Origin: a virus
Strand: one strand, 5' to 3'
IMG/VR virus record: IMGVR_UViG_3300027899_000008
Length of the DNA: 64,000 nucleotides
Below the pieces are notes generated by a model. It did no database searches and was not told where the DNA came from. It was given only the letters and a program-made list of their open reading frames with translations. Within the stretch, counting starts at the first letter, position 1. Each line of letters opens with the position of its first letter. Below, in pieces: positions 7,270 through 44,066 of this stretch. Both the position numbers and the translations under genes were made by a program.

Positions 7270-7301
7270 TAAACATCATATCCTATCAGTAAACAAGGAA
7301 T

Positions 7302-8528: not shown

Positions 8529-8533
8529 ATTAT
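8449..8533. repeat. 85-bp direct repeat, copy 1 (5' end of GT2 gene)
   Basis: 81/85 identical to 9073..9157. Confidence 0.9.
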
Positions 8534-9048: not shown

Positions 9049-9152
9049 TTAATCAACCTTTCTACTAACAGGGGGGCAACGGATTCGAGACACTCATGAA
9101 TAATATGAGTCTCATTTTTAACAATCATACACAATGTAATTTTTGGTTTCAT
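9045..9152 (-). pseudogene. 35-codon truncated duplicate of the GT2 N-terminus
   Basis: MKPKITLCMIVKNETHIIHECLESVAPLLVERLIK*; first 28 aa identical to 7302..8528; its TGA overlaps the methyltransferase ATG. Confidence 0.75.
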
Positions 9153-9157
9153 ATTAT
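9073..9157. repeat. 85-bp direct repeat, copy 2
   Basis: 4 mismatches to copy 1, all synonymous third positions. Confidence 0.9.
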
Positions 9158-9164
9158 ATACCTT

Positions 9165-12488: not shown

Positions 12489-13180
12489 ATAATGTAGTTT
12501 GATTTCTTGGCATCATTATAAAACATTTTAACAGTATCTAAAGAATAATCGTTTAAATTTTTACCATTTAGTGATAATTTATTGATTAAATCTGGAGTTA
12601 CTGTGATGATATGGCAACCTAGTTTATCTGCTTCATATATGTTAAAGACTTCTCTTGGACTTGCCCAAAGAATTTTAACATTAGAAGGTGATATCTTCAA
12701 TGCATATTTAACTATAGGTTTTGGATCTATACCCGTATCTGCAATTCTTCCAGCAAATATAGAAAGGATTACTTGAGTTGGTGAATCCAAATATGATTGT
12801 AACTCTTTAATTTGTTTTTTCGTAAAAACAGCAGTAATATTAACCTTTATACCCATATTCAATAATTTTTTAATTAGATGTTTTGTTGATTTTCCATCTG
12901 TATTTGTTACAGGTATCTTGACATAGATGTTAGTTCCATATGATGCTATTATTATTGCTTGTTTTTCCATCTCTTCAAGATCATCAGCAAACACTTCAAA
13001 AGAAATTGGCAAATCTTTTATTGTGCTTGTTATATCTTTCATAAATTCAATATAATTTACAACACCAGATTTGCGCATTAGTGTCGGATTTGTAGTAAAT
13101 CCAGAAACAAGTTTGTTGGATTCATATGCACTTATCATTTCAGTTTTATCTGATCCGTCCGAGTAAATTTCAATTTTCAT
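12485..13180 (-). CDS. tal: Short-type transaldolase (TalC/FSA family)
   Basis: GFTTNPTL, ISFEV, YVKIP (Schiff-base Lys), VN.TA.F, S.FAGRI.D, LWAS.R. Confidence 0.88.
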   Translation of the reverse strand: MKIEIYSDGSDKTEMISAYESNKLVSGFTTNPTLMRKSGVVNYIEFMKDITSTIKDLPISFEVFADDLEEMEKQAIIIASYGTNIYVKIPVTNTDGKSTKHLIKKLLNMGIKVNITAVFTKKQIKELQSYLDSPTQVILSIFAGRIADTGIDPKPIVKYALKISPSNVKILWASPREVFNIYEADKLGCHIITVTPDLINKLSLNGKNLNDYSLDTVKMFYNDAKKSNYII

Positions 13181-13746
13181 GTTTTATCCTTTAGATAAGT
13201 AACCACAAGATGCCAAATGATTCCTTGCCATTCTTCAGCGTGTGGTGTTATTGTATCATCATTCAGCACAGGAATCAATACACAAACATCAGATTTTTGC
13301 TTAGAATAACCACCATTTCTACTAACAATAGATAATACTTTGGCATTCACTTCTTTTGCCAAATCTATAGATTTTACTATGTTTTGTGATGTTTTTTCGC
13401 TTCCTCCACCCACAGAAAAAATTATAATAGCGTCATTTTTTGAAAGTTTAGATACCTTTAACCAATTAGAATAAGAAGTATCCCAACCATCATCATTTAC
13501 TCTTGCAGTTAATTCTGAAATATTATCAGATACAGAATAACTTTCTATATTCAGAATTTTTCTAAAATCATTGACGGCATGTGATGCATTTCCAGCACTA
13601 CCACCAACACCAATAAAAAACAATCTTCCATTGTTAGTTTTTACATTTTTAATTTCAGCGATAAACGATGCTATCTCCTTTAGAGACACTTTATCACATA
13701 TCATTTTTACATCATTTAAATATGATGCTATAAAAATTTCACTCAT
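13177..13746 (-). CDS. gmhA: SIS-domain phosphoheptose isomerase-like
   Basis: F.GVGGSAGNASH...D, TAR.ND.G, SVGG.S ... E..Q...H; SD AGAGGA. Confidence 0.8.
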   Translation of the reverse strand: MSEIFIASYLNDVKMICDKVSLKEIASFIAEIKNVKTNNGRLFFIGVGGSAGNASHAVNDFRKILNIESYSVSDNISELTARVNDDGWDTSYSNWLKVSKLSKNDAIIIFSVGGGSEKTSQNIVKSIDLAKEVNAKVLSIVSRNGGYSKQKSDVCVLIPVLNDDTITPHAEEWQGIIWHLVVTYLKDKT

Positions 13747-13751
13747 ATATT

Positions 13752-14447
13752 TCATTCCTCTATAATAAAACATGCTTGTGAATATGTCGATGGTTGATAA
13801 ACAATACAATTATAATTAAATTTAGTATCTAATAAGAATTCTGCAAATGCTTTGATTTCATGTTTTCTATAATCTGTATAATCATTTATTTCATCAAACA
13901 TAATCATAGTATTTGGAGTTATTCTCGATGAAAGTAAATCGAATACAGTTTTAGTCGAACTATAGATATCTGCATCTAAATGGATAAAATCAACTTCACC
14001 AGGATGTGTTTCTAAAAATGGAGCAATAGATGCATCAAAATAACCTTTAATTAATTTAATATTAGGATTCCATGGTTTTATATTAATAGTTGGAGATGGA
14101 TCATGATGTGTTCCCTGATGTGGTCCAAATATTGCACCCATAGGAATCTCGCCATTTAAATTGAAAGCATTCTTCAAATTATCAGAATCCCATTGTTCTG
14201 GTAATCCTTCAAAGCAATCAAATCCATAAAATTGTTCAGTTGGTTTTAATTCTGCAAAATGTTGCAAACTCCTTCCACGATATACACCAAATTCCATCCA
14301 CAACCCACCAGTTTTTCTGGTATGTTTCATACATTCAATTCGGTATGAAATACTAAAGTCGTAAGTTTGCTTGTGTTTTATCTTGCAGTCATGCAAAGAT
14401 ACCATAATTTCATTTATTTTGTTTTCTATAATTTGATTTGTATTCAT
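13752..14447 (-). CDS. TylF/MycF-like O-methyltransferase
   Basis: EFGVY.G.S, YGFD.FEGLPE.W, IKG.F, HLDADIYSST, FDE. Confidence 0.82.
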   Translation of the reverse strand: MNTNQIIENKINEIMVSLHDCKIKHKQTYDFSISYRIECMKHTRKTGGLWMEFGVYRGRSLQHFAELKPTEQFYGFDCFEGLPEQWDSDNLKNAFNLNGEIPMGAIFGPHQGTHHDPSPTINIKPWNPNIKLIKGYFDASIAPFLETHPGEVDFIHLDADIYSSTKTVFDLLSSRITPNTMIMFDEINDYTDYRKHEIKAFAEFLLDTKFNYNCIVYQPSTYSQACFIIEE

Positions 14448-15145
14448 ATTTTACACCTTTTTCTTAAATCACTGGATGACCAGTTATGATTCCTATCGTG
14501 ATAATAAATTTGTCTGCAATATTCTTCTCCAGTTATTGGATTTCCCTTGGCATCAGATCCAAGTATTCGAATATCTGGAGTTATACATGCAAGAAGAGCA
14601 CTTAACTCTTCTTCTGTTTTATATATAACAACTTCATCAACATACTTGTTACTTTCTAACTGAATTCTTCTCTCGTTTATAGATTGAATTGGTTTGTTTT
14701 TAAATTTTCTATCTATTGATGGATCTTCATGAAGAGCTGCTATTAGATAGTCGCATACAGATTTTGCATCTTTTAAATACAAACAATGGCCAGCATGTAG
14801 AAGATCAAAACTACTAGCGACAAATCCAACAATAATTATTTTGTTTTCGTGTCTCCATGTCTTTGTTGTGATTGCCTTATCATCGACAAAGACATCATAT
14901 GATGGTTTTCCCTTATCAATCAAATAATGGTATTTAACATTCCATTGTTTTAATTGTTTAACATTCAATTCATGATAATCTATACCAGAACTGGATCCTC
15001 TTGCTGTGAATATTGTAATTTCATGTCCTTGATGGTATAACAAATTTACTTCATCAATCATCTTGATATAAGGAATCGCTTCTTCATATTTACGAGATTT
15101 TGGAGTAAGGCAAAGAGTTTCATCTAAATCGAAACAATATTTCAT
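14444..15145 (-). CDS. HAD-like phosphatase fused to cytidylyltransferase-family (TagD/RfaE-II-like) nucleotidyltransferase
   Basis: N-terminal FDLDETL, FTARG, GKP..D.FVDDK; C-terminal FDLLHAGH, KP.Q...ER, SSS.LR.R. Confidence 0.82.
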   Translation of the reverse strand: MKYCFDLDETLCLTPKSRKYEEAIPYIKMIDEVNLLYHQGHEITIFTARGSSSGIDYHELNVKQLKQWNVKYHYLIDKGKPSYDVFVDDKAITTKTWRHENKIIIVGFVASSFDLLHAGHCLYLKDAKSVCDYLIAALHEDPSIDRKFKNKPIQSINERRIQLESNKYVDEVVIYKTEEELSALLACITPDIRILGSDAKGNPITGEEYCRQIYYHDRNHNWSSSDLRKRCKI

Positions 15146-15158
15146 GTATATACTTTCA

Positions 15159-16235
15159 TTATAGTATTTCTGAATATAAAGTCAACAACTTTGATTCTAT
15201 TGTTTTATAATAATAATTATTATTATACTTTTCTAAAGTCTTATTATGTTTTTCATAGTAATGATTCGAATCATCTCTCAATCGTTTCAATTCATCAATA
15301 TAATCACTTAAGGAATAGGCAATCAAACCACAATCAGATATCTGCTCAACATGACCCATATTTAAACCTGGATGACTAACAATAGGAATACCATGATACA
15401 TTGCTTCTATAATAGAAGCGGAGCAAACTTCTCCGTCAGATCTTCCATGTGTGTATACATCTATTCCATCTAAAAATTCATGAATAGTATCAACATTTGA
15501 ACTAAAATCTAAAAATACAATATTTTTCAATTTCAATTCAAGTGCTTGTTGGCGATGTATATCTGATCCACCCAACATAACAAAATAAGTATTATTTGTT
15601 TCTACATGGGAATATGCAAGTAGTGGAATGGGAGAAAAAATACCAGGATCATTTCTTTGATGCATCCCATAAACAAATGCATCATCTGGTATGTTAAATT
15701 TTTCCCTTAATTTTTTTGAATAAACATCTGGAACATACACAATACTAGGAATAATTATTATTTTTGAAGAATCTCCACCAGCAGCAATCCATTTATCTGC
15801 TTGCCACTTACAAAGCAATATTGATCTATCCACTATGCTTATATGATCCGACATATTTCCGTGAATGCTGTCTATTAATTTTGGTCCTATTATATCGGTG
15901 AATGGAAATTCTGGAAAACCAAATCTAGCAGTTTGCACAGCATCGTATTGTCTTGGATCAAATACATCCCATATATTAGAACCGATCCAGTTTTTCCTAT
16001 ACTCATCATATGCATCAACATGAATAGGAATGGTCCTAATACCATAAGATTCTACTACCTTTTTTCTTTCTTCTGAATTTTCTGGATGTTTCCAGTCTGT
16101 TCCTATCCTTGGAGCATTATTAGTATAGTAATAATCAACATCATATTTTGTCTTCAAAATACATGCCAACGTTTGGAGGTATTTTTCAGTTCCTCCAGAT
16201 CCAAGTCCCGCAAATTTAATACAAGCAATTTTCAT
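15159..16235 (-). CDS. GT4-like glycosyltransferase
   Basis: GLG.GGTEK N-motif; D.Y.HGR.DGE......EAM.HG.P.VS GT-B signature. Confidence 0.8.
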   Translation of the reverse strand: MKIACIKFAGLGSGGTEKYLQTLACILKTKYDVDYYYTNNAPRIGTDWKHPENSEERKKVVESYGIRTIPIHVDAYDEYRKNWIGSNIWDVFDPRQYDAVQTARFGFPEFPFTDIIGPKLIDSIHGNMSDHISIVDRSILLCKWQADKWIAAGGDSSKIIIIPSIVYVPDVYSKKLREKFNIPDDAFVYGMHQRNDPGIFSPIPLLAYSHVETNNTYFVMLGGSDIHRQQALELKLKNIVFLDFSSNVDTIHEFLDGIDVYTHGRSDGEVCSASIIEAMYHGIPIVSHPGLNMGHVEQISDCGLIAYSLSDYIDELKRLRDDSNHYYEKHNKTLEKYNNNYYYKTIESKLLTLYSEIL

Positions 16236-16866
16236 TTTTAAATAAATCATCATTATTACTAATTTTATCGTAGTAAATATAACCTTTAGACTTCATAAAC
16301 GAATGGATAATCTCTTGATATAATGGTCGAGATGAAGTTTCTATTAAAATATAATTTATATTGAATTCATTAAAATTAAAATTTTTAAGTGCTTCGAATT
16401 CATATCCTTCCAAATCTAAAGATAAAAAATCCACATGTATAATATTATTTTCTTTTAATATTGAATTTAAAGTTTTTGCTGAAACTGAAATTTGCTCTCT
16501 AGTTTTTATTTTTTGTATTATTTCGTTTTTAACTATTTCGTCATAGTAATCTAACTCAAGCAATGATGATGAACAAGCCATTAGACTTTCCCCACCACAA
16601 TCTTCGTTAAAATTCCCTGTCATGCAATTAATTGTTTCGTCGGGAGAAATTGCACAAGAATGAAAAATATTTAATGAACTTCTATGTTTTTTACAAAGTT
16701 CCATTTTTTTTATATTTGGTTCTATCAAAATACCTTTCCATCCTAGATTTTTTTCAAGATATAAAGTATTGGATTGCCTTATTCCATCATTAGCACCAGC
16801 TTCAATATAGAATCCGTTTTTAAAATTTAATTCAGAATGTATTAAATCAGGTAAGAGTTCACCCAT
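16216..16866 (-). CDS. FkbM-family methyltransferase
   Basis: YIEAGA.DG..QSNT..LE...GW.GILIEP, TL.SIL, DFLSLD.EGYE. Confidence 0.88.
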   Translation of the reverse strand: MGELLPDLIHSELNFKNGFYIEAGANDGIRQSNTLYLEKNLGWKGILIEPNIKKMELCKKHRSSLNIFHSCAISPDETINCMTGNFNEDCGGESLMACSSSLLELDYYDEIVKNEIIQKIKTREQISVSAKTLNSILKENNIIHVDFLSLDLEGYEFEALKNFNFNEFNINYILIETSSRPLYQEIIHSFMKSKGYIYYDKISNNDDLFKNENCLY

Positions 16867-17566
16867 TAGATTGCCTCAATGTACTTTTAAATTTTCCATG
16901 TTCAGATCCCTGCTTAACTAAAGAAGGTTCCCACCAATAAACTTTATGATTATGTTTAAAATGTTGGTGACCAAGTTCCCAATCTGAAATTAGATTAAAA
17001 GGAAACCATGTTGATGCTAAATCGACAATAGTTTTCTTTTTGAAAACAATCGAATCTGCACACCTCGATGCTGGATGTGATTTCAAATATGCAATTTGAT
17101 TTACATTGATATCTGATGGTTTTAAATTTGCACCACTCCCAAAATAAATAGCATCCCAATCGTTTGGGGTCTGCAAAAGATAGTCATAAAAACGAGTATC
17201 AAATTCATCACAAAGAATAACATCATCTTCAAAAAGTATAAACATTTCAGCATCAATTTTACTCAATTGCTGAAATACTTTTCCAAATTTTATAGTCAAT
17301 GATATTTCTGCGGGATTGCATTTTTTGGGATGATACCCTAATGCTGCTGTTCCCCAAAGACCTACCTTTTCTGACCATTCATTTGGATCTTCCATTCCAG
17401 ATATATAATGACACTTAACAAAGTGATCTGTTAATTCATTTGCATCATAATCTTCATAAAATGAATAATTAGAAAACCCAAATTTATTCAGCTGATCTAA
17501 CATATTTTGTTTGCGATCAGTAAGTCTTTTACAATGTAAAATAATGGTTTGAATATCAATACCCAT
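16859..17566 (-). CDS. GT25-like glycosyltransferase
   Basis: L..RK..M, EISL..K, ILFEDDV, P.DWD..Y.G, EP.LV.QGS. Confidence 0.72.
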   Translation of the reverse strand: MGIDIQTIILHCKRLTDRKQNMLDQLNKFGFSNYSFYEDYDANELTDHFVKCHYISGMEDPNEWSEKVGLWGTAALGYHPKKCNPAEISLTIKFGKVFQQLSKIDAEMFILFEDDVILCDEFDTRFYDYLLQTPNDWDAIYFGSGANLKPSDINVNQIAYLKSHPASRCADSIVFKKKTIVDLASTWFPFNLISDWELGHQHFKHNHKVYWWEPSLVKQGSEHGKFKSTLRQSNG

Positions 17567-18254
17567 AATCATCCTCTATTTGCAATTTTCCTGCATGTTC
17601 ACTTCTACAATCATACCTTCTATTTATAGAAGCAAGATCACCCCTCAAAACACACTCTGCTGTATCCTTGAAAAGTTCTACATTCTGCTTGAATCTTGTT
17701 TGAAACAAGTGATATATCTTATCATCAAAAATTGTACCAATTCCATAATATCCATATCCCGAGAGTCTCCATATTCCTCCAGCAGGAACGGATTGAAATG
17801 ATATAGGAAAGTTCATCTTCAATCGTAATTCGGCATCTACTGCTGCTCTTGTAAATTCTTGAGCAATATCAGATCGTATATTATTTACTGCACTTGGTTT
17901 TCCTATGCGTTCATAATATGGCTTACTAATCACTAAAAAAGAAGGAGCACAAAATAAATCATGTTTTGCTTTTATACAATTAGTAACCTGTGCGTTTCCA
18001 ACCATATACCCATTTGCACAATATTGTATTGCTTCATCTATTGCCTCTCGTTTAAGAGGTATGCAATCAGAATCCAGGAATACAAACACATCAGCATCTA
18101 TATTATTCATAACATGATCTATCCAAAGACCATGATTTATATTTTGCTGAGTGTAATTAACATCTAGATCAAAATGGGTCATTACCTTTTTGTGACATTC
18201 AATTACATTATGATCTGTATTATCCCAATATAAAGTGTTTACCGATACTTTCAC
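17556..18254 (-). CDS. Putative GT-A glycosyltransferase
   Basis: DxD motif FLDSDC.P; position within GT cluster. Confidence 0.55.
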   Translation of the reverse strand: MKVSVNTLYWDNTDHNVIECHKKVMTHFDLDVNYTQQNINHGLWIDHVMNNIDADVFVFLDSDCIPLKREAIDEAIQYCANGYMVGNAQVTNCIKAKHDLFCAPSFLVISKPYYERIGKPSAVNNIRSDIAQEFTRAAVDAELRLKMNFPISFQSVPAGGIWRLSGYGYYGIGTIFDDKIYHLFQTRFKQNVELFKDTAECVLRGDLASINRRYDCRSEHAGKLQIEDDYGY

Positions 18255-19093
18255 TTTACTCTCTTTATGATATTATTATAGACCCCATCAAGTGAGAAAT
18301 ATTCTTCATACACTTCCTTAAGTCGAGTTCTCATAGTTTCAACTTGTTCATCAGAAAATCCTGCCAAGACTTCGGGGATATATGGAATCTGATCTTCCTC
18401 AATCAATACTGAGAACTCTTCCCAATTCAACTCATCTTCCCATGGGAGATAATAATCATTTGTGATTATGACTGGAATTGTCTGCAACTGCATTGCTTCG
18501 TATAGTCTGAAACTATTCAACCCATATCCTCTCGGACACAACGCAAACTTGCTATTCGCTGTAACATTGACAAATGTCTCAAACTCAGAATTATTGATAT
18601 TTGGAAGAGACTCTCTCATATACATTGCAATATTCGTAGATGACTTACACGCTTCAAACATCTTCATACGGATGGGATGGGTGTTTGAACCAACAAACGA
18701 CGCTAGCAATTTCCTAGGCATGTTCTCTACCAATTGGATTGGCAACTTGGAACATACTAGAGGAATAGGTATGATGTTACTACCTTTCGCATTTCCACCT
18801 GCCGAAAAGCAAAGTGTATCTGGAGGAAGACCATGTGCTGGAGCATCGTCATGTTGACTGATTGTAAAATATTTTCCAGTGCTTGGAATAGTATTGAGAT
18901 ATGGTTGTAATTCACTGGTCTTATTATCACAATACAAAGTAGTCCAACTGACAGCAATGTAATCTCTACTTACCTCTGGATTTTCTTTAACAAATTTATT
19001 ATAGAAGTAATCCTCAAGATAATCACCTTGATGATAAGGTGGATAAACTGGATATTGGGGTGCTGGTCGGAATTGGTCTTCTGTATAAATCAT
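18251..19093 (-). CDS. Exostosin-family (GT47) glycosyltransferase
   Basis: ASFVGS.THP.R, SKFALCPRGYG..SFR.YEA.....IPV.I...Y.LPW...L.W. Confidence 0.85.
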   Translation of the reverse strand: MIYTEDQFRPAPQYPVYPPYHQGDYLEDYFYNKFVKENPEVSRDYIAVSWTTLYCDNKTSELQPYLNTIPSTGKYFTISQHDDAPAHGLPPDTLCFSAGGNAKGSNIIPIPLVCSKLPIQLVENMPRKLLASFVGSNTHPIRMKMFEACKSSTNIAMYMRESLPNINNSEFETFVNVTANSKFALCPRGYGLNSFRLYEAMQLQTIPVIITNDYYLPWEDELNWEEFSVLIEEDQIPYIPEVLAGFSDEQVETMRTRLKEVYEEYFSLDGVYNNIIKRVK

Positions 19094-19878
19094 AGTTTTG
19101 ATTCAATTTCATTAATAATGGAATATAATATTAAGTGTTCTGTGCTTATTGGTTCCAGCGTTTTATTAATAGGATTATATCTGATATGACCAAATGGTGC
19201 AGAATAAAATAAATAATCCGTAAGTTCAACTTTGTGGTTTATATCAGATTTAATAACAAACGCATGGGGAAACGGCAATCTATTATCAGGATTTAAATTT
19301 AATGAATTACTAGAACCTTCTCTCAAATCACTTTTATGATTATGATGAATTTTGATTGATTTGCATGGATTTTTCACCTTATATCCAGTGGTGATTAAAT
19401 CATAGGCAAATTTTCCGTCACATCCAATTTTGCCAAAAAAAGAATAATTAAAATTATTGATTATAGTTTTAAAATTTCCCTTATATAACCAACAATCCTG
19501 AGAAGTTCCAAATAAACATTTTGGATTGTGTAGTAGTCCATCATCTTCATATCTTGTTATTGTATAGATTTCATCATCTGCTATATCGTCTGCTAACTTT
19601 AATGTTTCATCGAATAAAATATCACTATTTGCTATAACATTGATGCTGTTAGAATCTGTGCGATTTTCTATAAATCGCAGAAAATCACTTAACATATCTA
19701 GATTTAATTCATATTTTACAATATCAGACTTAACAATGTTTGGCATATCATCACCAACAAATATATAAATTTCATCAAATAATTTTGATGTTATATTTGT
19801 ATTGATCGTAGTTATTATCTCATCATTTCTAACATCGTTTGGCGATTTCCAATATGAAATAAACAATTTATATTTCAT
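19090..19878 (-). CDS. Putative glycosyltransferase-like protein
   Basis: IANSDI.FD, SQD.W, G..GCD...A, NP...I...H.H.S pattern seen in phage GT clusters. Confidence 0.5.
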   Translation of the reverse strand: MKYKLFISYWKSPNDVRNDEIITTINTNITSKLFDEIYIFVGDDMPNIVKSDIVKYELNLDMLSDFLRFIENRTDSNSINVIANSDILFDETLKLADDIADDEIYTITRYEDDGLLHNPKCLFGTSQDCWLYKGNFKTIINNFNYSFFGKIGCDGKFAYDLITTGYKVKNPCKSIKIHHNHKSDLREGSSNSLNLNPDNRLPFPHAFVIKSDINHKVELTDYLFYSAPFGHIRYNPINKTLEPISTEHLILYSIINEIESKL

Positions 19879-20543
19879 ATAAACCACATTCCTTCTTCTT
19901 TGAATTTATTCATCTTAGTTTCAATTCCAACCATATGATTGTTATGAACCATAATTGCCTTGTCCTTTATTCCTTTGGTATAATACAGATGCCCATTTGG
20001 AAAATACTCTATAGGTAATAATGCCACAATGGTTGAGTATTCTGTCAGAGCAATTTGATTGATGAGAATTTGGTCATCTTCTGTTTCATTCAATCCACAC
20101 TGCTCAATCATCTTGGAGCACTCTTCAGTGTTGTTGAATACCATAAGACCAGAGCAAATCATACTACCTGGAACATCAGTCTGAAACAAAACATATTTAG
20201 AATTAGCATTAAAGAAATCGATTGGATTCTGACAAAACACGATATCAGTATCAACCCAACAAAGTCTCTTGTGATTTCTGTATGTCTCGGATATCAACTT
20301 CCACTTTGACTTCACAATCTGCCTAAAGTTACTACTCTTGTCAAAAGACCATTCCTGATATTCAGTATATTTCTGATTTTTATATAGAAATGCTGTTGGA
20401 TATTGCTTCATCTGTTCATACGCAGTAGCATCCAAACAAGCAATGATGAAGTTCTCTGAACCAATGCCCACATTCTCTGCGGACTTCAACATGTTCTTAC
20501 ATATCTCTACGCAACCACTATTCAGTTGTGTTAAAAATTTCAT
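19875..20543 (-). CDS. Nucleotide-diphospho-sugar transferase (GT77-like)
   Basis: K......., VDTDIVF..NP, CSG, DDQ..IN, LP...FPNG, VH.N...G...K. Confidence 0.8.
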   Translation of the reverse strand: MKFLTQLNSGCVEICKNMLKSAENVGIGSENFIIACLDATAYEQMKQYPTAFLYKNQKYTEYQEWSFDKSSNFRQIVKSKWKLISETYRNHKRLCWVDTDIVFCQNPIDFFNANSKYVLFQTDVPGSMICSGLMVFNNTEECSKMIEQCGLNETEDDQILINQIALTEYSTIVALLPIEYFPNGHLYYTKGIKDKAIMVHNNHMVGIETKMNKFKEEGMWFI

Positions 20544-21205
20544 AAATTCCTCGCTAGATTATAATCTATACTTTCCTGTGGCAATCCCATCTCGCGAAGC
20601 GATTGTTCCTTGGATTCGTTGTCTGAAATTCCCATGGTAATCATTGGATTCATTCCTTGTGGAATATGAGTTCCAGGCCATATGGCATAATTGATTGGAA
20701 GAGCAGCGATCTTTAGTTTTGGAAGATAGATGGGAAGAACAAATGCCATCAATATTTCATGGTCGAATACTTTTCGTTGAGTAGTTGATTTTATATTTTC
20801 CTCACATGAGGTAATCCAAAAATTCAAGAACTCAATCACCAGTTCATTGTAGGAGACATATATGGGAGATGCTTTTGGAATTGATAAATTTAAATTGGAA
20901 ATAATTGCTTGATAGGCAAATCCAATATCGCAATTTCCTTCCATCTCATCAAACACCTTCAATTCATCATGAAGTATAGAATCAACATCCATCCACACGA
21001 ATGGTTTCTTCTTTTCCATTAATACATCAAGAATGAACTTTGGTTTTGCTAGACAATTTAATCTATATTCGCCAAGAGATGGCAATTCCCGTATATCATG
21101 AGGCATATTATATTCATTACAATTTATACGCAATCGTCGTGCGTGATCGCTATAATATGTTTTATCGCCAATGTCACAATAAAAAGATACAATTTCAGTT
21201 TTCAT
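20540..21205 (-). CDS. Putative GT-A glycosyltransferase
   Basis: KP.FI...L, VW.D.DS (DxD), LP..Y. Confidence 0.6.
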   Translation of the reverse strand: MKTEIVSFYCDIGDKTYYSDHARRLRINCNEYNMPHDIRELPSLGEYRLNCLAKPKFILDVLMEKKKPFVWMDVDSILHDELKVFDEMEGNCDIGFAYQAIISNLNLSIPKASPIYVSYNELVIEFLNFWITSCEENIKSTTQRKVFDHEILMAFVLPIYLPKLKIAALPINYAIWPGTHIPQGMNPMITMGISDNESKEQSLREMGLPQESIDYNLARNL

Positions 21206-21206
21206 A

Positions 21207-22052
21207 TTAAAGTTGCTTTATTTTAGAATAAAGATAATCGTCTGCCATTTGTAAATCAATACATGTTTGATAATTTTTCAATGCTGATTCAATCTTGGAT
21301 TCAAACAATTCTTTGGTCAAGATTGTAACATCAAAATTAGGTGAAAGCAATACAAATCCATTGATATCAAAAATATCACCAATATCAGGAGCACCCCAAT
21401 AGATTGGAATGGTTCCAACCATAAAGCAATCAGTTAATTTTTCTGTGTAGTATGTGGTATAGCTATCATTCTCAACTACAAAGGAGAACATGTAATCCTT
21501 GAGTCCTGGTGTCTTATCCCAAGCGTCAATGCCAGAAATTCTTGGAGAGTCATTTACCCCACCATAAATGTCAATGACATCCTTGAATGTTGTAGCAATC
21601 GCATTTCTCAGTTTGTGTCCATATGCGTAATTCTTAGAAGAAGCAATTATAGAACACTGCTTAGTCTTCTCAATGGACATATCTTCCGATAGGGGCTTAA
21701 TCCATGGGAGATTACTACCAGCATATGCAAATTGTATCTTTGGGTGAATGGAGAGCAATTCTCTTTCGGAGGTGAACACAGCATCGTAGTGTTCACAAAT
21801 TTTCTCCAGATTATTCATCCATGTATCGCGAGGAACATGCATGGTGTGAAAAATGGTCCTAGATTCGCAAACCCATGCGACCTTTACCTCACCTTCCTTT
21901 TTCACATATTCAATACCAGACATAATAGCACCATCAATGAATACCTTGATGGGACAATCTTCCAATGTCCATTGAAATCTTTTTGGTTTTAAATCAGAAC
22001 AAGATGAATGTTCTATAACAAACGGCGCACCAATTGCTTGCACTTTTTCCAT
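21207..22052 (-). CDS. GT10 (fucosyltransferase-like) glycosyltransferase
   Basis: L.DY.FS...EN......Y.TEK..D.F..GTIPIYWG. Confidence 0.8.
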   Translation of the reverse strand: MEKVQAIGAPFVIEHSSCSDLKPKRFQWTLEDCPIKVFIDGAIMSGIEYVKKEGEVKVAWVCESRTIFHTMHVPRDTWMNNLEKICEHYDAVFTSERELLSIHPKIQFAYAGSNLPWIKPLSEDMSIEKTKQCSIIASSKNYAYGHKLRNAIATTFKDVIDIYGGVNDSPRISGIDAWDKTPGLKDYMFSFVVENDSYTTYYTEKLTDCFMVGTIPIYWGAPDIGDIFDINGFVLLSPNFDVTILTKELFESKIESALKNYQTCIDLQMADDYLYSKIKQL

Positions 22053-24745: not shown

Positions 24746-25058
24746 CCCAAATCATATCAGTTTCTTGTTTAATTAAAGTATATAATACAGACACATCTGG
24801 TCTATACCAACGATCTCCTTCAGTAGCCGTACCTGGTAGAACATCTTGTATATAGAAGTTTCCACCACCCGCACCTAGTGCTTTCCATGTAGATGTTGCT
24901 GTGCTTGTAGTTGGAACAATAGAGGAAGTAGAAGTTAAGGCAACATATTTTGCTCCTTTATACTCTACTACATCTCCAATGCGATACAAATATGGTTTCC
25001 CATCTGCATCATATTGTCTAAACTTACCTCTAAAATTTAGATTGTCTGCATTGTTCAT
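24735..25058 (-). CDS. Hypothetical protein, CBM5/12-like plus fibre-type module
   Basis: Y.IGDVV.Y.G..YVAL......P......W and P..A..GDRWY......LY.......W(V)EL; GATAAATA late promoter 6 nt upstream (25065-25072). Confidence 0.6.
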   Translation of the reverse strand: MNNADNLNFRGKFRQYDADGKPYLYRIGDVVEYKGAKYVALTSTSSIVPTTSTATSTWKALGAGGGNFYIQDVLPGTATEGDRWYRPDVSVLYTLIKQETDMIWVEL

Positions 25059-25059
25059 A

Positions 25060-26790
25060 TCAGTTATTTATCATTCTACTGAAATTATTCTTCTTTTCAA
25101 ACAAGATTATATTAGAAAATTTATCAACAAGTTGGTCTGCTTTGTGACTAATTACATATACATTTGCCCTATCCGACACTATCTTTAGCAACTTCATCAA
25201 TTCATCCATTCCCATTCCATCCAAGGAAGAATCAAATACCTCATCCAAAATGAGAAGATTACAACTAACGCTATTCTTCATTCTTGCTATTTCTCTCCAT
25301 GCGAGAAGCAGTGCTAAATCTATGCGCATTTTCTCACCCTCGCTGAAGTTCATATAGGAGAATTCATCGCGGTGACGAGATTTAATCTGTTCATTGAATT
25401 CCTCATCCATATGAAATTGAACATAGAAATCCATAGATGCTAGAAACTTATTGATGAACTTATTCATGTATGGGAGATAATGCTTGATTATCTTAGTTTT
25501 AACCCCACCATCTCTCAGAAGTTCATTTGTAAGTTCATGATACATCAGGTCTTCTGATTCAGTTTCCTTTTGAAGAACAATAATGGAAAAGGATTCTTCG
25601 AATACCTTCAGTTTTTCCTTTTCCTCTACAATGCCATCCTTAATTGATGACTTCTGCATAGTGCCACGAATGCGTTCAATTTCTTTCTGATATGCTTCGA
25701 TTTCCTTGTTGAAGGAATTTACTTCATGAATCGTATTGATTATATCCTGAATTTGACTTTCAAGTCTAGTGACATCATCCTGAAGACTATTACTATGGTC
25801 TTTGGTCTTAATAATATCATCTTCTATATTAGAAATCTCGTAATTATTCATAAGCACCTTTTCCTTCTTGACTTTATCCTCAATTGGTTGAGTGCAAGTT
25901 GGACAGGTGCAATTTTCCTTAAAGAAGTGTATTTCCTTCTGCTTTTGTTCTTTTGAATTATTAAGTGTGGCGATATGTGTGCGGCAATCCTGAATTCTGT
26001 TGGTTTTGTCCTTTAGAATTTTCTTTCCACCATTCATATCTTCTTGTAGTTTTCCAACCGAAAGATTTTTGGATACTAAATCAAATTGAATTGTTTGAAT
26101 CTTTCTCTCTAGTTCAGTAATTCTTTCATTCTTCACATCATCATCTTCGTTGTTCTTTTTCTCAAGAGTAGAAATATAACTTCTCTGAACTTGAATCTTG
26201 TTCTTTTCAATTTCAATCTTTGTATTCAGTTCTCTAATTCCTTCCTTCAACGAAAAAATCTTACCCTTAAGAACAACATTCATTGTGCTGAAGATATCAA
26301 TGTCAAGAATATTTTCAATTACACTTCTGCGGTCAACAGCACTCAACTGCATGAATGGAACAAACGACGAACTACCAAGAATCACCACTTGAGTGAATGT
26401 CTTGTAATTCATCTTTAAAATCTGTGTCTCTAGCAATTCCTGATAATCAAGACTCTTCGCATCTTGATTGATTAATTCAGTATTCTTATAAATTTCAAAC
26501 AACCGAGGATTGATTCCTCTCTTGATTAAAAATTTATCAACACCCTTGGTGAATTCAACCTCTACTAAACAATTCTTAGTATTAATCGAATTAGGCAATT
26601 GTGGAATATTAATCTTCCGAAATGGTTTTCCGAACAAAGCAAATGTTATAGAATCGAGAAAGGCAAAAGATTTTCCACTTCCATTATTACCACAAATAAG
26701 AGTTGTGTTGTTTACATCAAGAATAATTTCTGTTAATGTATTTCCAAACGAACCAAAATTCTTGAATCTTACTTTCTCAAAACGAATCAT
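25060..26790 (-). CDS. 46: Recombination endonuclease ATPase subunit gp46 (Rad50-like)
   Basis: F.NF.S.GN, G.NGSGKS, CPTC zinc hook, FSEGEK.RIDLA, LILDEVFD, ISH. Confidence 0.96.
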   Translation of the reverse strand: MIRFEKVRFKNFGSFGNTLTEIILDVNNTTLICGNNGSGKSFAFLDSITFALFGKPFRKINIPQLPNSINTKNCLVEVEFTKGVDKFLIKRGINPRLFEIYKNTELINQDAKSLDYQELLETQILKMNYKTFTQVVILGSSSFVPFMQLSAVDRRSVIENILDIDIFSTMNVVLKGKIFSLKEGIRELNTKIEIEKNKIQVQRSYISTLEKKNNEDDDVKNERITELERKIQTIQFDLVSKNLSVGKLQEDMNGGKKILKDKTNRIQDCRTHIATLNNSKEQKQKEIHFFKENCTCPTCTQPIEDKVKKEKVLMNNYEISNIEDDIIKTKDHSNSLQDDVTRLESQIQDIINTIHEVNSFNKEIEAYQKEIERIRGTMQKSSIKDGIVEEKEKLKVFEESFSIIVLQKETESEDLMYHELTNELLRDGGVKTKIIKHYLPYMNKFINKFLASMDFYVQFHMDEEFNEQIKSRHRDEFSYMNFSEGEKMRIDLALLLAWREIARMKNSVSCNLLILDEVFDSSLDGMGMDELMKLLKIVSDRANVYVISHKADQLVDKFSNIILFEKKNNFSRMINN

Positions 26791-31914: not shown

Positions 31915-31942
31915 ATAATACCTTAAATTAAGGATTTGTCAA
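31915..31942 (-). promoter_or_regulatory. sigma70-like promoter for uvsY (TTGACA-N16-TATTAT)
   Basis: -35 31937-31942, -10 31915-31920, ATG 6 nt downstream. Confidence 0.6.
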
Positions 31943-32512
31943 TACATTGATTTCATAATGGGTATAAGAGAATGTACATGTCGCGACTACTGCGTCAGTA
32001 TCAGTCAATGCGCTATCAAAATCTATTCCAGATAGGAATGTAGGAAACATATTCTGATATGTTACAGAGATAATTGGTTTATACTTGCTGTCTGTTATCA
32101 ACATCAATCCAGTCGCTACTTTTTGATGTTCTTCAATATGTTCACCTGTTGTATCATAAGAAATTCCAATTTGCCTTATCCATTCATATATCTCTAACCA
32201 ATTTGCTAGATTTTCATCAACTATGAATCCAACTTGAAGGTCTTCGTAGTTATATGCTGTTCCTGGTCTTTTAATGACCACACCGCCAGGTTGAGATTGA
32301 ATGGAAACACCAAAACTAAGTGAAGGAATATTTGCTCGTTGGCAAAAATAAGTGACCGTTGGGCAACGAGTTATTCTAAATTGAAACTTATTGTTAGTAA
32401 GAAAATTAGTATTGGTTGGTTGATTTGGACTTGTAGTATACAAATCGCCTGGAGTCCAAAATCCAAGTTTCTTAATAATATCATCGTATGTCTGAAATTC
32501 TGATTCTGCCAT
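31928..32512 (-). CDS. 3: Tail completion/tube terminator gp3
   Basis: NFL....F.F.I...P.V.YFCQ.AN.P, F.VDE.L.N..EI..W, F...FP..LS...F; position after gp23. Confidence 0.85.
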   Translation of the reverse strand: MAESEFQTYDDIIKKLGFWTPGDLYTTSPNQPTNTNFLTNNKFQFRITRCPTVTYFCQRANIPSLSFGVSIQSQPGGVVIKRPGTAYNYEDLQVGFIVDENLANWLEIYEWIRQIGISYDTTGEHIEEHQKVATGLMLITDSKYKPIISVTYQNMFPTFLSGIDFDSALTDTDAVVATCTFSYTHYEINVLTNP

Positions 32513-32517
32513 ACTAG

Positions 32518-32525
32518 TATTTATA
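32518..32525 (-). promoter_or_regulatory. Late promoter TATAAATA for gp3 (leaderless)
   Basis: Exact consensus 5 nt before ATG 32512. Confidence 0.75.
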
Positions 32526-32559
32526 AAAGAAAACCCCACAGAGTTTAGTCTGTGGGGTT
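32525..32559 (-). terminator. Rho-independent terminator after major capsid gene
   Basis: 11-bp stem AACCCCACAGA/TCTGTGGGGTT, 6-nt loop, followed by TTCTTTT. Confidence 0.88.
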
Positions 32560-39342: not shown

Positions 39343-40635
39343 TTAATTCAATTTTGTTTCAAGATCAACATTAGTTAGGGTAATGGTGATAAAATTGATG
39401 GAAGTTAGTGGTTTGATGAGAACTTCTGCATAGAATTCGTTTGCTTCAACTGTTGATGCTGGATTATTTGATTCATCACATATTACTTTATAATCACTAA
39501 TGCCATTCTGAGATTGAACTGTTTCAAGAATCTTATCCGCAGTAGATTTGAAGGAAGAACGTGTAGCAGCATTATTGACTTCAAACAGAGTTCTACGAGC
39601 AACTGCTCCAAGAGTCTTCTTAAGATTAATGAAGAGTCTAGCAACATTTACTCTAGAGAGTGTAGAAGTATTTGAATAGGTAGTCTTATCGCCGAAGAGG
39701 AATGTTCCTTCTCCTGGGAATGTAACTACTGGATTGATACCAGCATCATAGAGGTAATCTTGTTCTGCTGCTCTGAGAGTTCTAGCGAGTCTGGTAACAT
39801 TGAGAATCTTACCTCTCTTTGTACCTGCTGGAGAGAACCAAGGATAATAATCTCTATCGGTTCTTGCCATACATCCAGCAATATCTGGAGCAAGAATGGT
39901 GGTAATTAGAGTTTCATTCGCACCATTGGCGCCAAGATGTACCTTCTCACCATAGACAACGGTCAAGTGATAATCATCATAGGTAGCACCATTAAATCCT
40001 GTTGGTGCAGTTGCAATTGAAGCAGTTCCTGATGGTGTATTTAGGATACCCATGACTGCGAGTTCATTTGCTTTCTTAGCATCAACGACTTTGATGACAT
40101 TGGCAACAGCATCAGCAGAAGAAATACCTTGGAAGATAACATCATAGATTGCGTTATCGGAAATTGCTTGGAATCCGGAAATACCACCGCAAAGACCATT
40201 ACCACCAATACCAACATAACATGGTGATCCATATTGTAGATAATTGTTAATCGCCCAGAATTGTTGAGCGAATGCTGTTCTACCACCGGTAAGGCCTGCA
40301 CCAACATTGGTAACTACGCCTCCCTCGAATGCCGTGCCAGTATATGTATTATTAATATATCCTGCTGCGCATTCGCCTTGAGAATATAAAGTAATACCTG
40401 CCATAAAAGTAGCACCACCTGCAAATTCGACGATCATATTAGAAAGTCTAGCATATAGATCGTTGGTGTTTGGCATATACATCAGTCCAGCAGCTCTTTC
40501 TGGCAATGTTGCGAGTGCTCCCATGTTAGCATCATCTGCCAACATAGCAGCAACGAGTTTAATACTGGGTGATTCGGACACGGGTCCAACGATTGAAAGA
40601 TCGTTTAGTTTGAATGTTACATTTGGTCTGGCCAT
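39343..40635 (-). CDS. 18: Tail sheath protein gp18 (short form)
   Basis: N.LQYG, D.AG..ARTD....PWFSPAG..RG, LY...INPV..FPG.G..LFGDKT, R.NV.RLF, LFE.N, CDE.NN. Confidence 0.93.
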   Translation of the reverse strand: MARPNVTFKLNDLSIVGPVSESPSIKLVAAMLADDANMGALATLPERAAGLMYMPNTNDLYARLSNMIVEFAGGATFMAGITLYSQGECAAGYINNTYTGTAFEGGVVTNVGAGLTGGRTAFAQQFWAINNYLQYGSPCYVGIGGNGLCGGISGFQAISDNAIYDVIFQGISSADAVANVIKVVDAKKANELAVMGILNTPSGTASIATAPTGFNGATYDDYHLTVVYGEKVHLGANGANETLITTILAPDIAGCMARTDRDYYPWFSPAGTKRGKILNVTRLARTLRAAEQDYLYDAGINPVVTFPGEGTFLFGDKTTYSNTSTLSRVNVARLFINLKKTLGAVARRTLFEVNNAATRSSFKSTADKILETVQSQNGISDYKVICDESNNPASTVEANEFYAEVLIKPLTSINFITITLTNVDLETKLN

Positions 40636-40705: not shown

Positions 40706-43582
40706 TTAAAACAAACCACTATAATTATCCATGTCTTTAATATGTAGATTAAGTGATATTTTGATATCTTTTTTATCTTGTATCAACCATCTGTCTACTC
40801 CATCTCCGGTCCAATTATCCTCTTCTTCTTGAATTGAGATGTCTTCAGAACCATCATCATAATATCCAAATGGCAGCAAATCATCTTCAATCTTTTCGAT
40901 TTCGCGAGAATACATCGCAAGACGAACATCCATATCGGTTAGATTCTTAAAGAAGTCCTGTCGTGTACACCAAGCAAACATTGTGAGGCATGATACTAAA
41001 TCGTCATTGTGTCCATCATCTGCTTCATAACTATTTTTTCTAGCAACGAATGTCGTTAATTCATTGATGATATCAAAATCTTCAATGATTAATTTATCTT
41101 CTTCAACTAGATTCTTTAAAACTGCACATCCTACCTTTTTAGTAACTACAGATGCCTTCAATCCAAGATGATTTTGTTTTGCGCCACCAAATCCTTCGGT
41201 GATGACCTGTCCTTTTCTTCCTAGGAAACTTGTCTTGATTATATGTTCATATTCCAAGTCAGTATGTAAAATATCAGCAACCTGAGAACCAATGTCATTT
41301 ATCTCAACCATAACATACGCATTGTTATACTTCTTGGCAACGGTCTTTATCATCGATGGGTATAGCAATGGAGATATTGTATTATTTCTATATGTAGCAA
41401 CTATTCTGTAAGGAAATTGAGTGACATCAACGACTACGAATGCGCTATAATCCTTTCCCTGTCCCCGAGCAGTATCGACCGTTATGAAATAAATATGGTC
41501 GTGAGTCTTGGCATCTTCATTTTCCCGTATTGGTTCTTCATAAATGGTGAGTCCTTCCTTTGTTCTCAATAAGGGTTTGGAAAAAACCAGTGTGTGTAAT
41601 TTTTGGGAAGATATGAGTGTATTGGATGAACCTACGAAATCGCACTCAAACTCGCTCTGAAATTGCTTTTCCGAAGTCTTGCTAATCATCTCTTGTTTCC
41701 ACTTGTCTGTTCTAAGTGGACCACCTGGATATAATGGAACCTGACTCCAGTGAACTTCTACTGGAACATAACCATTTTGTTTGTTGATAGCACCCTTCCA
41801 ATAGTAATAGAACATATTCAACCCATTTGGGGTTGAGATTATAAACATCTTGGTTGATTGACCCGATGTAATCGTAGGATATACGGATGAAAAGAAGTCT
41901 TCGGCAATTTGAATGGGAATGTGGGCAAATTCATCGAGCAGGATACAATTGCTGATTCGAACTCCATTTGCATAATATGATGTGTGTTCTTCGACTTCCA
42001 TCAAATCATAGACATCCACTACACCCCAATCTTCAACACCCAATACACAAACATCACCATCACATCCATCAACAAATTCTCCAACCCTCAAAGACATAGC
42101 AGAAACAAAACCTCTGTCTGACGACATTATTTTGTGATCCGATGTGCAGATTAGTTCTTCATTGTTTTCAAATGTTACTTTAATAGTTTTTTGATTTGGT
42201 GCTTTACTTATTCCGTGGAACTTTTTAAATCCTGTATGAGTAAGTACTTCCCATCTACCATCTTCGTCCCCTTGTTCCAAGCACCACCTTGTCGCTCTAT
42301 TCGAGCAATCGCTGCTAATCGCATCTTCTCTTTTGCTTCGGGAGATCGTTTCATTCCACGATGCTTTTCTGCTGTCTTTCGAATTTTCTCTGGATTCTTG
42401 TTGATTTTGTCGGAGTGTTCTTTGGTCTTCTTTACTCCCTTGAGGAGTTTCGATATATGTTCCCCAAATTCCTTTGGCCGAATCATCCCCAATAATCGAC
42501 CTTTGTTCGCATCTGATATTTTCTTTCTTGTTGCTTCTGTATTTTTCTTGCCTTTGTGTCGCTCTGAAATTTTTTGCTTGGTTTCTTCGGTGTGTTTCAT
42601 TCCTGTTCGCATTAGTCTTCTTGCTTCCGAATAGTTTTTCTTGACTTCCAACAAAGCACTCGGTGGTAATTTTACTTGGGTTCCCTGTCGTCCAGTTACC
42701 ATCTTGTGATAAGCATGACACATCTTGGCCTTCTCTATTCCATCCAAGAAGTGCGGCAGAAGTCGATGTGCTAACAAATGTTCTCGTATTGTCAGAACTA
42801 CTATGTTCGCCTTGATGTTTGCTCCACCCAATGATTTTGGAATTATGTGATGTTTCTCTGTTGATATCAAATCTACCATAACACGATTTTGCCCATTCTC
42901 CATAAGGGAAAAGTACCACTTCTTGTATTTGTTGTCTATCATTTCCATATTCATATATATGATTATGGTTATTTCTAGACGAGTTCGCATATAACTCTCC
43001 GATGGTAGTGTGAATCACCTCATCAGTAAGTGTATTTTTAATTATCAGTTTACTATTAGCAGATATACAATTAAAGGAACCGCCACGAATAGCAGAGGAA
43101 GAAGTAGCACTTGCTAGAATCTTGGAACCATTCTCCAACATAATGGAACCTTTGTTCCATTCGACTACGCCCTGCTGTAACCATTTGGGAAGATATTCAA
43201 ATGCCATCTTGATTCTGCTTAGAATTTCAATAGCGGTTGCTTGCTTATTTGCTAGAATCGCAACATTCACATTTTGATTAAATAGAACATAATGAAGAAG
43301 ATACGACCCAACCGTAGTTGTTTTTCCAGTTTGTCTTGGAAGTTTTCCAATTACGAATCGATTATCATGTAATGTCTTAATTAAAGATTCCTGATAATTA
43401 TACATGTTGAAGGGAACTAATCCCTGATCGACAGCAACAATCTTAACATAATTCTTAATGAAATATATTGGGTCATTTGAGCATTTTATATATTCTTGAA
43501 CTTGTTCTGGAGTAAATTGCTGTTGAACACCAACAGGTTTAAGATTTGGGTTACCTAAATATCCATCTTTATGTTTCGTCAT
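40706..43582 (-). CDS. 17: Terminase large subunit gp17 precursor containing an intein (spliced ~584 aa)
   Basis: YLGNPNLK, PRQTGKTT (Walker A), RGGSFN|CILLDEFAH (Walker B restored after splicing), STPNG, nuclease VDTARG.G.DYS ... DDLV. Confidence 0.96.
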   Translation of the reverse strand: MTKHKDGYLGNPNLKPVGVQQQFTPEQVQEYIKCSNDPIYFIKNYVKIVAVDQGLVPFNMYNYQESLIKTLHDNRFVIGKLPRQTGKTTTVGSYLLHYVLFNQNVNVAILANKQATAIEILSRIKMAFEYLPKWLQQGVVEWNKGSIMLENGSKILASATSSSAIRGGSFNCISANSKLIIKNTLTDEVIHTTIGELYANSSRNNHNHIYEYGNDRQQIQEVVLFPYGEWAKSCYGRFDINRETSHNSKIIGWSKHQGEHSSSDNTRTFVSTSTSAALLGWNREGQDVSCLSQDGNWTTGNPSKITTECFVGSQEKLFGSKKTNANRNETHRRNQAKNFRATQRQEKYRSNKKENIRCEQRSIIGDDSAKGIWGTYIETPQGSKEDQRTLRQNQQESRENSKDSRKASWNETISRSKREDAISSDCSNRATRWCLEQGDEDGRWEVLTHTGFKKFHGISKAPNQKTIKVTFENNEELICTSDHKIMSSDRGFVSAMSLRVGEFVDGCDGDVCVLGVEDWGVVDVYDLMEVEEHTSYYANGVRISNCILLDEFAHIPIQIAEDFFSSVYPTITSGQSTKMFIISTPNGLNMFYYYWKGAINKQNGYVPVEVHWSQVPLYPGGPLRTDKWKQEMISKTSEKQFQSEFECDFVGSSNTLISSQKLHTLVFSKPLLRTKEGLTIYEEPIRENEDAKTHDHIYFITVDTARGQGKDYSAFVVVDVTQFPYRIVATYRNNTISPLLYPSMIKTVAKKYNNAYVMVEINDIGSQVADILHTDLEYEHIIKTSFLGRKGQVITEGFGGAKQNHLGLKASVVTKKVGCAVLKNLVEEDKLIIEDFDIINELTTFVARKNSYEADDGHNDDLVSCLTMFAWCTRQDFFKNLTDMDVRLAMYSREIEKIEDDLLPFGYYDDGSEDISIQEEEDNWTGDGVDRWLIQDKKDIKISLNLHIKDMDNYSGLF
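41948..43069 (-). mobile_element. Intein in TerL (374 aa, residues 172-545)
   Basis: Block A CISANSKLII, block B LICTSDHKIM (TxxH), block F DVYDLMEV...YYANG, terminal SN followed by Cys+1; removal restores a normal gp17. Confidence 0.92.
42208..42990 (-). CDS. HNH homing endonuclease with NUMOD3 repeats, overprinted (+1 frame) inside the intein
   Basis: EKHHIIPKSLGG.N...N.V.LT.REH..AH.LL (Mob-type HNH); repeats GMKHTEETKQKIS, GKKNTEATRKKIS, GMKRSPEAKEKM; SD GGAG 6 nt upstream. Confidence 0.9.
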   Translation of the reverse strand: MRTRLEITIIIYMNMEMIDNKYKKWYFSLMENGQNRVMVDLISTEKHHIIPKSLGGANIKANIVVLTIREHLLAHRLLPHFLDGIEKAKMCHAYHKMVTGRQGTQVKLPPSALLEVKKNYSEARRLMRTGMKHTEETKQKISERHKGKKNTEATRKKISDANKGRLLGMIRPKEFGEHISKLLKGVKKTKEHSDKINKNPEKIRKTAEKHRGMKRSPEAKEKMRLAAIARIERQGGAWNKGTKMVDGKYLLIQDLKSSTE

Positions 43583-44066
43583 TTAATAACTCTTCATGAT
43601 TTATATGCTTTATCTGACTTCTAGATTGATTGATTATATTCTGTAAATCTTTAGTAGAACCAACAAATATAGAATTATTCGTAGTGTTCTTGATTTGTTT
43701 TGTTATTTCTGGTTCTGCCTTGTTTGCTTTTTCGTGTAACTCAACCAATCCAGTATTCATCTCTGTAATCGTTTTGAGTAAGATAGAAACCACCTCATAT
43801 GCTCGCGGAGAATCACTAGCAGTTGCGACTTTCATCATTCCATCTATAGCATTGAAGCCAGTGGATATGAGTTCTTTCATATTTTTTCTTGCTTCTAGAA
43901 AATCCTGTCGAACAAGGTCTTTCTTTTCTCTCTTTATTGATTTGACTGGTGATATCACGATATCAGCATCGACTATAGTCTCACTCACAACCTGCTGAAG
44001 TTCTTCTTTAATGGGTGCTGGAATATCCAGAATATTTGCTAAATATGTGTCACTATCTTCTTTCAT
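43569..44066 (-). CDS. 16: Terminase small subunit gp16
   Basis: D....R.N...LI..G..A......VA..SD.PRAYEV, NN..FVGST.DLQ. Confidence 0.92.
   Translation of the reverse strand: MKEDSDTYLANILDIPAPIKEELQQVVSETIVDADIVISPVKSIKREKKDLVRQDFLEARKNMKELISTGFNAIDGMMKVATASDSPRAYEVVSILLKTITEMNTGLVELHEKANKAEPEITKQIKNTTNNSIFVGSTKDLQNIINQSRSQIKHINHEELLNDET

Follow-up and report, generated by a model that had tools for sequence, protein, structure and literature searches.

An intein in the gene for the large terminase subunit (TerL, gp17) of a T4-like phage was studied in a 64,000-nucleotide (nt) stretch, here called the window, of IMG/VR record IMGVR_UViG_3300027899_000008. This intein is very probably one half of a two-protein selfish element, in which a cis-splicing intein carries the gene for a free HNH nuclease overprinted in a second reading frame of its own coding sequence. 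An earlier note made from the sequence alone had described a terminase frame open for 958 codons around a complete intein, and in the same DNA an intact HNH and NUMOD3 open reading frame (ORF) of 260 amino acids (aa) at 42208-42990 in the +1 frame. Both descriptions were borne out, the intein (374 aa, 41948-43069) having the class 1 residues. TerL, the intein and the HNH ORF all lie on the minus strand, and the HNH ORF is offset from the TerL ORF by 592 nt. The coordinates are collected in Table 1.

A stop codon is created in the terminase frame wherever an HNH codon ending in T precedes a codon beginning with AA, AG or GA. Within the HNH ORF of the window, 84 codons precede such a codon and none of them ends in T. 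At the risk positions which permit T it was used in 0 of 56 cases, compared with 47 of 122 elsewhere, and the avoidance of stop-making codon pairs remarked on in the note is therefore real. Based on the codon usage of the window about 23.5 terminase-frame stops are predicted, and none of 20,000 resamplings from that usage was stop-free. The synonymous-codon shuffling which the note had proposed as a check likewise gave no stop-free sequence among 100,000 permutations (mean 13.4 stops, minimum 3), nor did 100,000 codon shuffles. The longest open run in the corresponding frame of 27 other window genes was 63 codons.

The 12 best IMG/VR homologues of the HNH protein (44-99% identity) and one partial match were all located in TerL inteins at the same site, with both frames open. 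Close homologues with terminase-frame stops, which the note had considered damaging unless a trans-splicing arrangement was present, were absent from this set, and the split alleles do have separate N- and C-terminal intein parts (IntN and IntC). The other 67 homologues contained 5 to 39 stops in the corresponding frame, a typical free-standing one having about 20-25. Scans of DNA with the junction pattern raised the number of overprinted alleles to at least 27-28, which are the further dual-open examples that the note expected in viral metagenomes; allele counts are lower bounds, and about seven pattern matches were unrelated chance hits and were ignored. Pooled over at least 27 overprinted alleles, which are related and do not amount to 27 independent tests, T was found at 0 of 1454 risk sites versus 1368 of 2930 safe sites (47%). 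In 52 non-overprinted homologues it was used at 1604 of 3377 risk sites, the rates at risk and safe sites both being 47.5%, and in split or fused alleles at 35-40% of risk sites. Across the whole overprinted clade, changes that would make a stop are purged. The overprinted HNH proteins formed one clade with a Shimodaira-Hasegawa-like approximate likelihood ratio (SH-aLRT) support of 97, the proteins of the split alleles L095 and L013 being placed nearby with weaker support; this tree was built with a quick method and no direction of evolution is claimed from it.

Pairwise ratios of nonsynonymous to synonymous substitution (dN/dS) were 0.04-0.32 for the HNH frame, compared with 0.7-5.5 for the terminase frame. 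The note had placed both frames under selection. For the nuclease this is correct, since it is conserved as a protein by purifying selection; in the terminase frame, selection inside the insert acts against stops and frameshifts and not on amino acids, the spacer being conserved merely as an open frame. The overlap, and not positive selection, is taken as the cause of the terminase-frame values above 1. The spacer itself appears to be a by-product translation of the HNH gene, predicted to be disordered and dispensable. When the terminase-frame intein was used as query for related loci only a near-identical copy was returned, because the spacer is not conserved. Gene callers mostly overlook the nuclease: the annotated cluster of the precursor has 23 members and that of the HNH protein two.

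The +1-frame product matched the homing endonucleases of PHROG 655 (E=1e-30), and its NUMOD3 repeats scored above the Pfam cut-off. Residues E31, H33, H34, N48, H57 and H61 are invariant in the family and include an HH...N...HxxxH core. Based on this homology the protein is assigned to the Mob-like homing endonucleases and would be a putative cutter of the element-free allele. No significant match was obtained in a PDB sequence search with the HNH protein, and no close full-length homologue from cultured phages was found in INPHARED; PHROG 655 genes of cultured phages are about 30% identical to it.

Evidence for mobility, which the note had attributed to the nuclease, was obtained from the distribution of the element. 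The exteins of loci L004 and L006 are 72% and 80% identical in DNA sequence, while their inteins are 98-99% identical, and the identity climbs to 83% and 97% beside the junctions, as in co-conversion. The extein of the window is nested among 21 intein-free alleles (support 97), with L220 as its sister (support 99). In one lake sample the intein-containing form was covered 13.5x and the intein-free form 13.8x. The patchy distribution and the contrast between extein and intein identities are consistent with homing. The HNH protein could instead be kept for the benefit of the phage, as a packaging helper or for the exclusion of co-infecting phages, with mobility secondary. HNH proteins do assist some terminases (PMC11855218, PMC4422536) and the purifying selection is strong; however, close relatives lack the whole element, alleles that have lost the nuclease by deletion are common in the same phage, and the family is that of Mob-like homing endonucleases, which makes this explanation improbable.

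A box resembling TATAAATA precedes an in-frame ATG by exactly 5 nt, with no Shine-Dalgarno (SD) sequence, in 22 of 27 alleles, the ATG of the window being that at 42948; the relatives carry TATAAATA itself or variants of one or two bases. In four of the remaining five alleles the leader is longer and there is an SD-like site. None of 289 internal ATG codons was preceded by the box at this distance. The 8-bp box of T4 late promoters lies about one helical turn upstream of the transcription start (PMC2988020), and this spacing would therefore put the start of the transcript at or next to ATG 42948. Translation of the HNH gene likely starts at 42948 and may be leaderless and confined to the late period. 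It is improbable that the HNH protein has no start of its own and is instead made by programmed +1 frameshifting, joined to the N-extein and IntN. Fused in-frame alleles (L161 and L175) do exist at the same site, and the window has 28 open +1-frame codons ahead of the NKY motif, but no conserved slippery site was found, the window having none, several alleles have a +1-frame stop 6-12 codons before NKY, and the ATG at a fixed place behind the promoter box is conserved.

TAAATA boxes were also identified upstream of late genes in the window, a few of them at a similarly short distance from an ATG. A box 4-6 nt before an ATG occurs at 32515-32523, 25058-25070 and 1318-1328 on the minus strand. 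These short spacings suggest leaderless late transcripts in this phage, and the ORF annotated at 31928-32539 probably starts at the ATG near 32512.

The splicing domain was investigated by homology and by structure prediction. The intein begins with Cys and ends with Asn followed by an extein Cys, and its removal from TerL leaves 584 aa. An N-terminal Cys, a block B TxxH, a block F Asp and a terminal Asn are those of a class 1 intein; C1, T309, H312, D355 and N374 are invariant in 27 intein sequences, and the +1 residue is Cys in all intein-bearing alleles. An AlphaFold model built with the 27-sequence alignment (a single-sequence run was uninformative, with a predicted local distance difference test score, pLDDT, of 34) was confident for residues 1-30 and about 270-374 and had no confidence for 31-261. 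The confident part is a complete predicted HINT domain which superimposes on VidaL (6VGW) with Z 19.9 and a root mean square deviation of 2.1 A over 136 residues. The only PDB sequence match of the intein was to CatC (6DSL chain B, E=1.8e-7), and it starts at intein residue 274, directly after the nuclease-gene insert. The nuclease gene is therefore located between blocks A and B, where the atypically split TerL inteins are broken; the note had correctly placed it inside the intein, and its position is hereby refined. Whereas a canonical intein has its endonuclease in frame between blocks B and F, the HNH gene is out of frame and upstream of block B. The break position is that of the atypically split TerL inteins, with the insert after about 30 aa and a C-part of 102 aa, but the terminase frame is continuous and not divided into two ORFs for trans-splicing. 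The intein would be expected to splice in cis, because TerL is an essential protein and none of the catalytic residues varies. Homologues, invariant residues and the predicted HINT fold together support the proposal of the note that the splicing domain excises the junk translation.

Removal of the insert, or of the HNH part alone, as an RNA intron, with a terminase frame that is open by coincidence, is highly improbable. A contig from an RNA library joins the exteins exactly; the identical joined form is present in a DNA run as the intein-free allele, an exact one whose junction skips 1122 nt. A search of Rfam at E<=5 gave no intron match, only two chance matches outside the intein. The protein-splicing residues are invariant and are predicted to fold as a HINT domain, and an intron would need neither the avoidance of stops nor deletions restricted to in-frame ones. 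An assembly artefact or a chance open frame, suggested by the metagenomic origin and by apparently mis-assembled copies (L204 and L182, in which NUMOD3 repeats are duplicated or chimeric and the frame is broken), can be dismissed, because independent assemblies from three other studies span the intein without indels and the 958-aa precursor cluster has 23 members, and divergent homologues exist.

Several observations weigh against the proposed element. The Pfam HNH match of the nuclease (18.2 bits, E=0.003) lies below the gathering cut-off of 21.4; a sub-threshold match was found in 11 of 11 family members, the best with E=2e-5. The residue before the terminal Asn is Ser in the window intein instead of the His of most relatives (Lys or Ala in a few). 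A penultimate His is usual in inteins, not universal. Many intein-free neighbours have Ile, Val or Ala at +1 and are unable to host the intein. The window box, CATATATA, has two mismatches to TATAAATA, and the presumed transcription start was placed from T4 geometry. The one RNA data set (metatranscriptome X18) covers only the intein-free junction and is neutral on expression. The window also has a rival start, ATG 42990, led by an SD sequence (GGAG), which the note had taken as the nuclease's own. Apart from the window, this SD and ATG are present just in a near-identical copy of it; only 8 of 27 alleles have an open in-frame ATG as far upstream as 42990, and several have a stop there. ATG 42990 was accordingly rejected as a conserved start.

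Based on these data the following course of events is proposed. Ribosomes on the terminase mRNA would read through all 374 codons of the insert; residues 1-30 and about 270-374 would fold as the predicted HINT domain with a disordered loop of roughly 240 aa, and cis protein splicing would drop the whole insert to give a 584-aa TerL. A late promoter of the T4 type, located within the part of the gene that encodes the intein, would give late in infection a short transcript from or near ATG 42948, which would be read in the +1 frame, probably as leaderless mRNA, into the free HNH-NUMOD3 nuclease; because the gene has no SD sequence, little nuclease would come from the long terminase mRNA. In co-infection the nuclease may cut or nick intein-free gp17 near GGSFN|CILLDE, with repair copying the intein, as the distribution suggests. 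Selection keeps the HNH protein and purges stops and frameshifts from the terminase frame, leaving the amino acids of the loop free. When homing no longer pays, in-frame deletions remove the nuclease and leave mini-inteins with remnants.

A series of alleles was found at the insertion site. The nearest 80 loci by C-extein were all intein-free (80/80), the closest being 92% identical. Split inteins carry between IntN and IntC either a free-standing HNH gene (L095, L013) or a GIY-YIG-NUMOD3 gene (L218, L303). In L161 (intein end 2875, plus strand) and L175 the N-extein and IntN continue in frame into the HNH-NUMOD3 protein, which ends at a stop, and IntC begins at an overlapping ATG. The GIY-YIG-NUMOD3 proteins have the C-terminal DNA-binding block NKNPEKI...HRG in common with the HNH family, which by sequence points to an exchange of domains at a single locus. 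Short inteins of 144-160 aa with scars of both HNH gene ends (L149, L158, L166, L173) are nested at several places within the overprinted clade, and L159 is a plain mini-intein of 137 aa. A common TerL allele of the window phage, 804 aa long, lacks 462 nt without loss of frame, and what is left of its HNH gene carries a nonsense change. At least four separate deletion events were counted, and all deletion alleles keep the terminase frame, as is expected if that frame is translated through and the loop is dispensable.

Other arrangements were observed among these loci. L156 (2742-3794, minus strand) is an overprinted allele with a 21-codon deletion which keeps both frames and has lost one NUMOD3 repeat. 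L303 (339-3304) is situated on a 164-kb contig binned as a metagenome-assembled genome of Flavobacteriaceae; a search of prokaryotic genomes gave one split GIY-YIG allele only. L086, L090 and L093 (around 2400-2800) are TerL inteins split at a second site, which end before CEF; the arrangement is AceL-like, and an HNH-like ORF overlaps the beginning of IntC by 28-61 nt. L088, L096 and L146 have two or three tandem inteins per terminase, one at the same pre-Walker-B site, and L096 has at the early loop a long in-frame insert with a different nuclease type.

Table 1. Features of the terminase intein locus (positions in the window).
Feature	Position	Strand	Remarks
Large terminase (gp17) precursor, T4-like	40706..43582	-	958 aa; Pfam Terminase_6N and 6C above cut-off
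gp16	43569-44066		Flanks TerL on one side
Tail sheath gp18	39343-40635		Flanks TerL on the other side
Class 1 intein	41948..43069	-	374 aa, TerL residues 172-545; site GGSFN|CILLDE, directly ahead of Walker B
Intein N-part (Cys1, block A, helix)	42980..43069	-	Residues 1-30; pLDDT 76-93; C1 invariant
Terminase-frame spacer	42254..42979	-	Stop-free, polar; pLDDT <50 (residues 31-261); dN/dS pattern; natural in-frame deletions
Intein C-part	41948..42253	-	102 aa; homologous to CatC of atypically split TerL intein
Block B TxxH	42134-42148	-	Within intein C-part
Block F Asp	41999-42013	-	Within intein C-part, which ends with the terminal Asn
HNH-NUMOD3 gene, +1 frame	42208..42948	-	246 aa from conserved ATG (likely start); open up to 42990 (260 aa)
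T4 late-promoter-like box CATATATA	42954..42961	-	Exactly 5 nt 5' of ATG 42948
Conserved 5' boundary (NSSR/NSSK codons; TCTAGAA or TCTAAATA)	42971..42985	-	Common to split allele L095
Stretch of 462 nt at a short AAGATG repeat	42259..42720	-	Deleted in frame in a common allele (804-aa TerL, P0006-P0011)

The window is a segment of a T4-like myovirus with the gp13-gp23 region, a UvsW-like helicase, gp46/47 and a clamp loader, and was found in freshwater metagenomes. In near-identical loci the TerL neighbours are labelled T4-gp15, DNA_Packaging and Phage_sheath. An antisense ORF of 147 codons (42191-42634, plus strand) over the NUMOD3 region was not seen to be conserved and is most likely a by-product of codon bias. 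A long cluster of glycosyltransferase, GT47-like and GHMP-kinase genes (about 7300-22050, minus strand), located between the tail-fibre and replication genes, probably serves virion or DNA glycosylation.

How the first stop-free copy arose may be considered in three ways, in no order of preference: a rare lucky insert, a G+C-richer donor, or a stepwise origin from a split allele. The note had suggested that a free nuclease gene invaded a mini-intein; the dual coding stands, and direct invasion in a stop-free state would be a conjecture. The splicing-domain tree, which has long branches, left the order of split, fused and overprinted forms unsettled. The conserved NSSR/NSSK boundary looks like an older promoter box; it holds the IntN stop codon in split L095 and is read through in overprinted L011 and L146. 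Because L095 and the overprinted alleles share this 5' boundary, one base deciding between stop and read-through, the overprinted family is tentatively regarded as the contiguous counterpart of, and an evolutionary link to, the atypically split TerL inteins. A single invasion of the early loop might then have given the split, IntN-fused and overprinted forms, with a nuclease made late only, leaderless and from inside the intein; this reading is possible, somewhat short of an even chance. If it is true, about 25 stops were removed from a second frame of 240 codons, which stays open in nature through selection on a protein that is discarded. About 28 alleles, and free, overprinted, split, fused and deleted states at one site, make a measurable system, and with the full allele cycle at one site the models of Dassa 2009 and Gosselin 2025 for nuclease gain and the origin of split inteins become directly testable. 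Since gene callers mostly miss the nuclease, such elements are counted too rarely and are mistaken for inteins whose domain has decayed. An intein which tolerates an unstructured loop of 240 aa at the atypical split point could be a source of new split inteins with a short IntN, and of use in protein labelling.

The overall layout is already known from a few phages, and the novelty implied in the earlier note was overstated: an out-of-frame HNH in a brucellaphage terL intein was reported in 2015 (PMC4422536), and out-of-frame nucleases of the endonuclease VII-like, antisense LAGLIDADG and antisense Vsr-like types in actinobacteriophage inteins in 2025 (Gosselin 2025, bioRxiv 10.1101/2025.01.02.630785). 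The new variation is an HNH-NUMOD3 gene at the early break point of a T4-like TerL intein; in the literature searched, coverage of which is incomplete, no Mob-like HNH-NUMOD3 gene overprinted at this split point was found. As in Gosselin 2025, the intein is contiguous, the nuclease gene lies on the same strand in another frame and the host frame is open; for those inteins, some in terminases, an origin by invasion of a free-standing homing endonuclease was also proposed. The nuclease there is however endonuclease VII-like, in frame 3 and in the usual endonuclease region, whereas here it is Mob-like, in the +1 frame and before block B; the phages here are T4-like, and per-frame selection, mobility and the decay series were measured. 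The brucellaphage case, mentioned in passing, is set apart by its description as a zinc-ribbon HNH in a non-T4 phage. In the ShiLan element (PMC11855218) an HNH gene likewise occupies another frame of a phage methylase, with a stop-free host frame and a homing-like distribution, but it has no splicing domain and the junk translation stays in the host protein. The free-standing Mob-like HNH genes of T4-like phages (PHROG 655) belong to the same sequence family; unlike in the overprinted genes, T is common at their risk positions, and the corresponding frame contains 5-39 stops. There is a further likeness to the atypically split TerL inteins (AceL-TerL 25/104 aa, GOS-TerL 37/115 aa, Cat 30/104 aa; PMC11766414) and the fractured genes of Dassa 2009 (PMC2677866), which have a free-standing nuclease, a T4 late promoter and the same early break. 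The 3' end of their nuclease gene overlaps IntC, as the final 15 codons of the HNH gene overlap the C-part here; those inteins splice in trans, whereas the window intein is contiguous, and split alleles at its own site are represented by L095, L013, L218, L303 and L161/L175.

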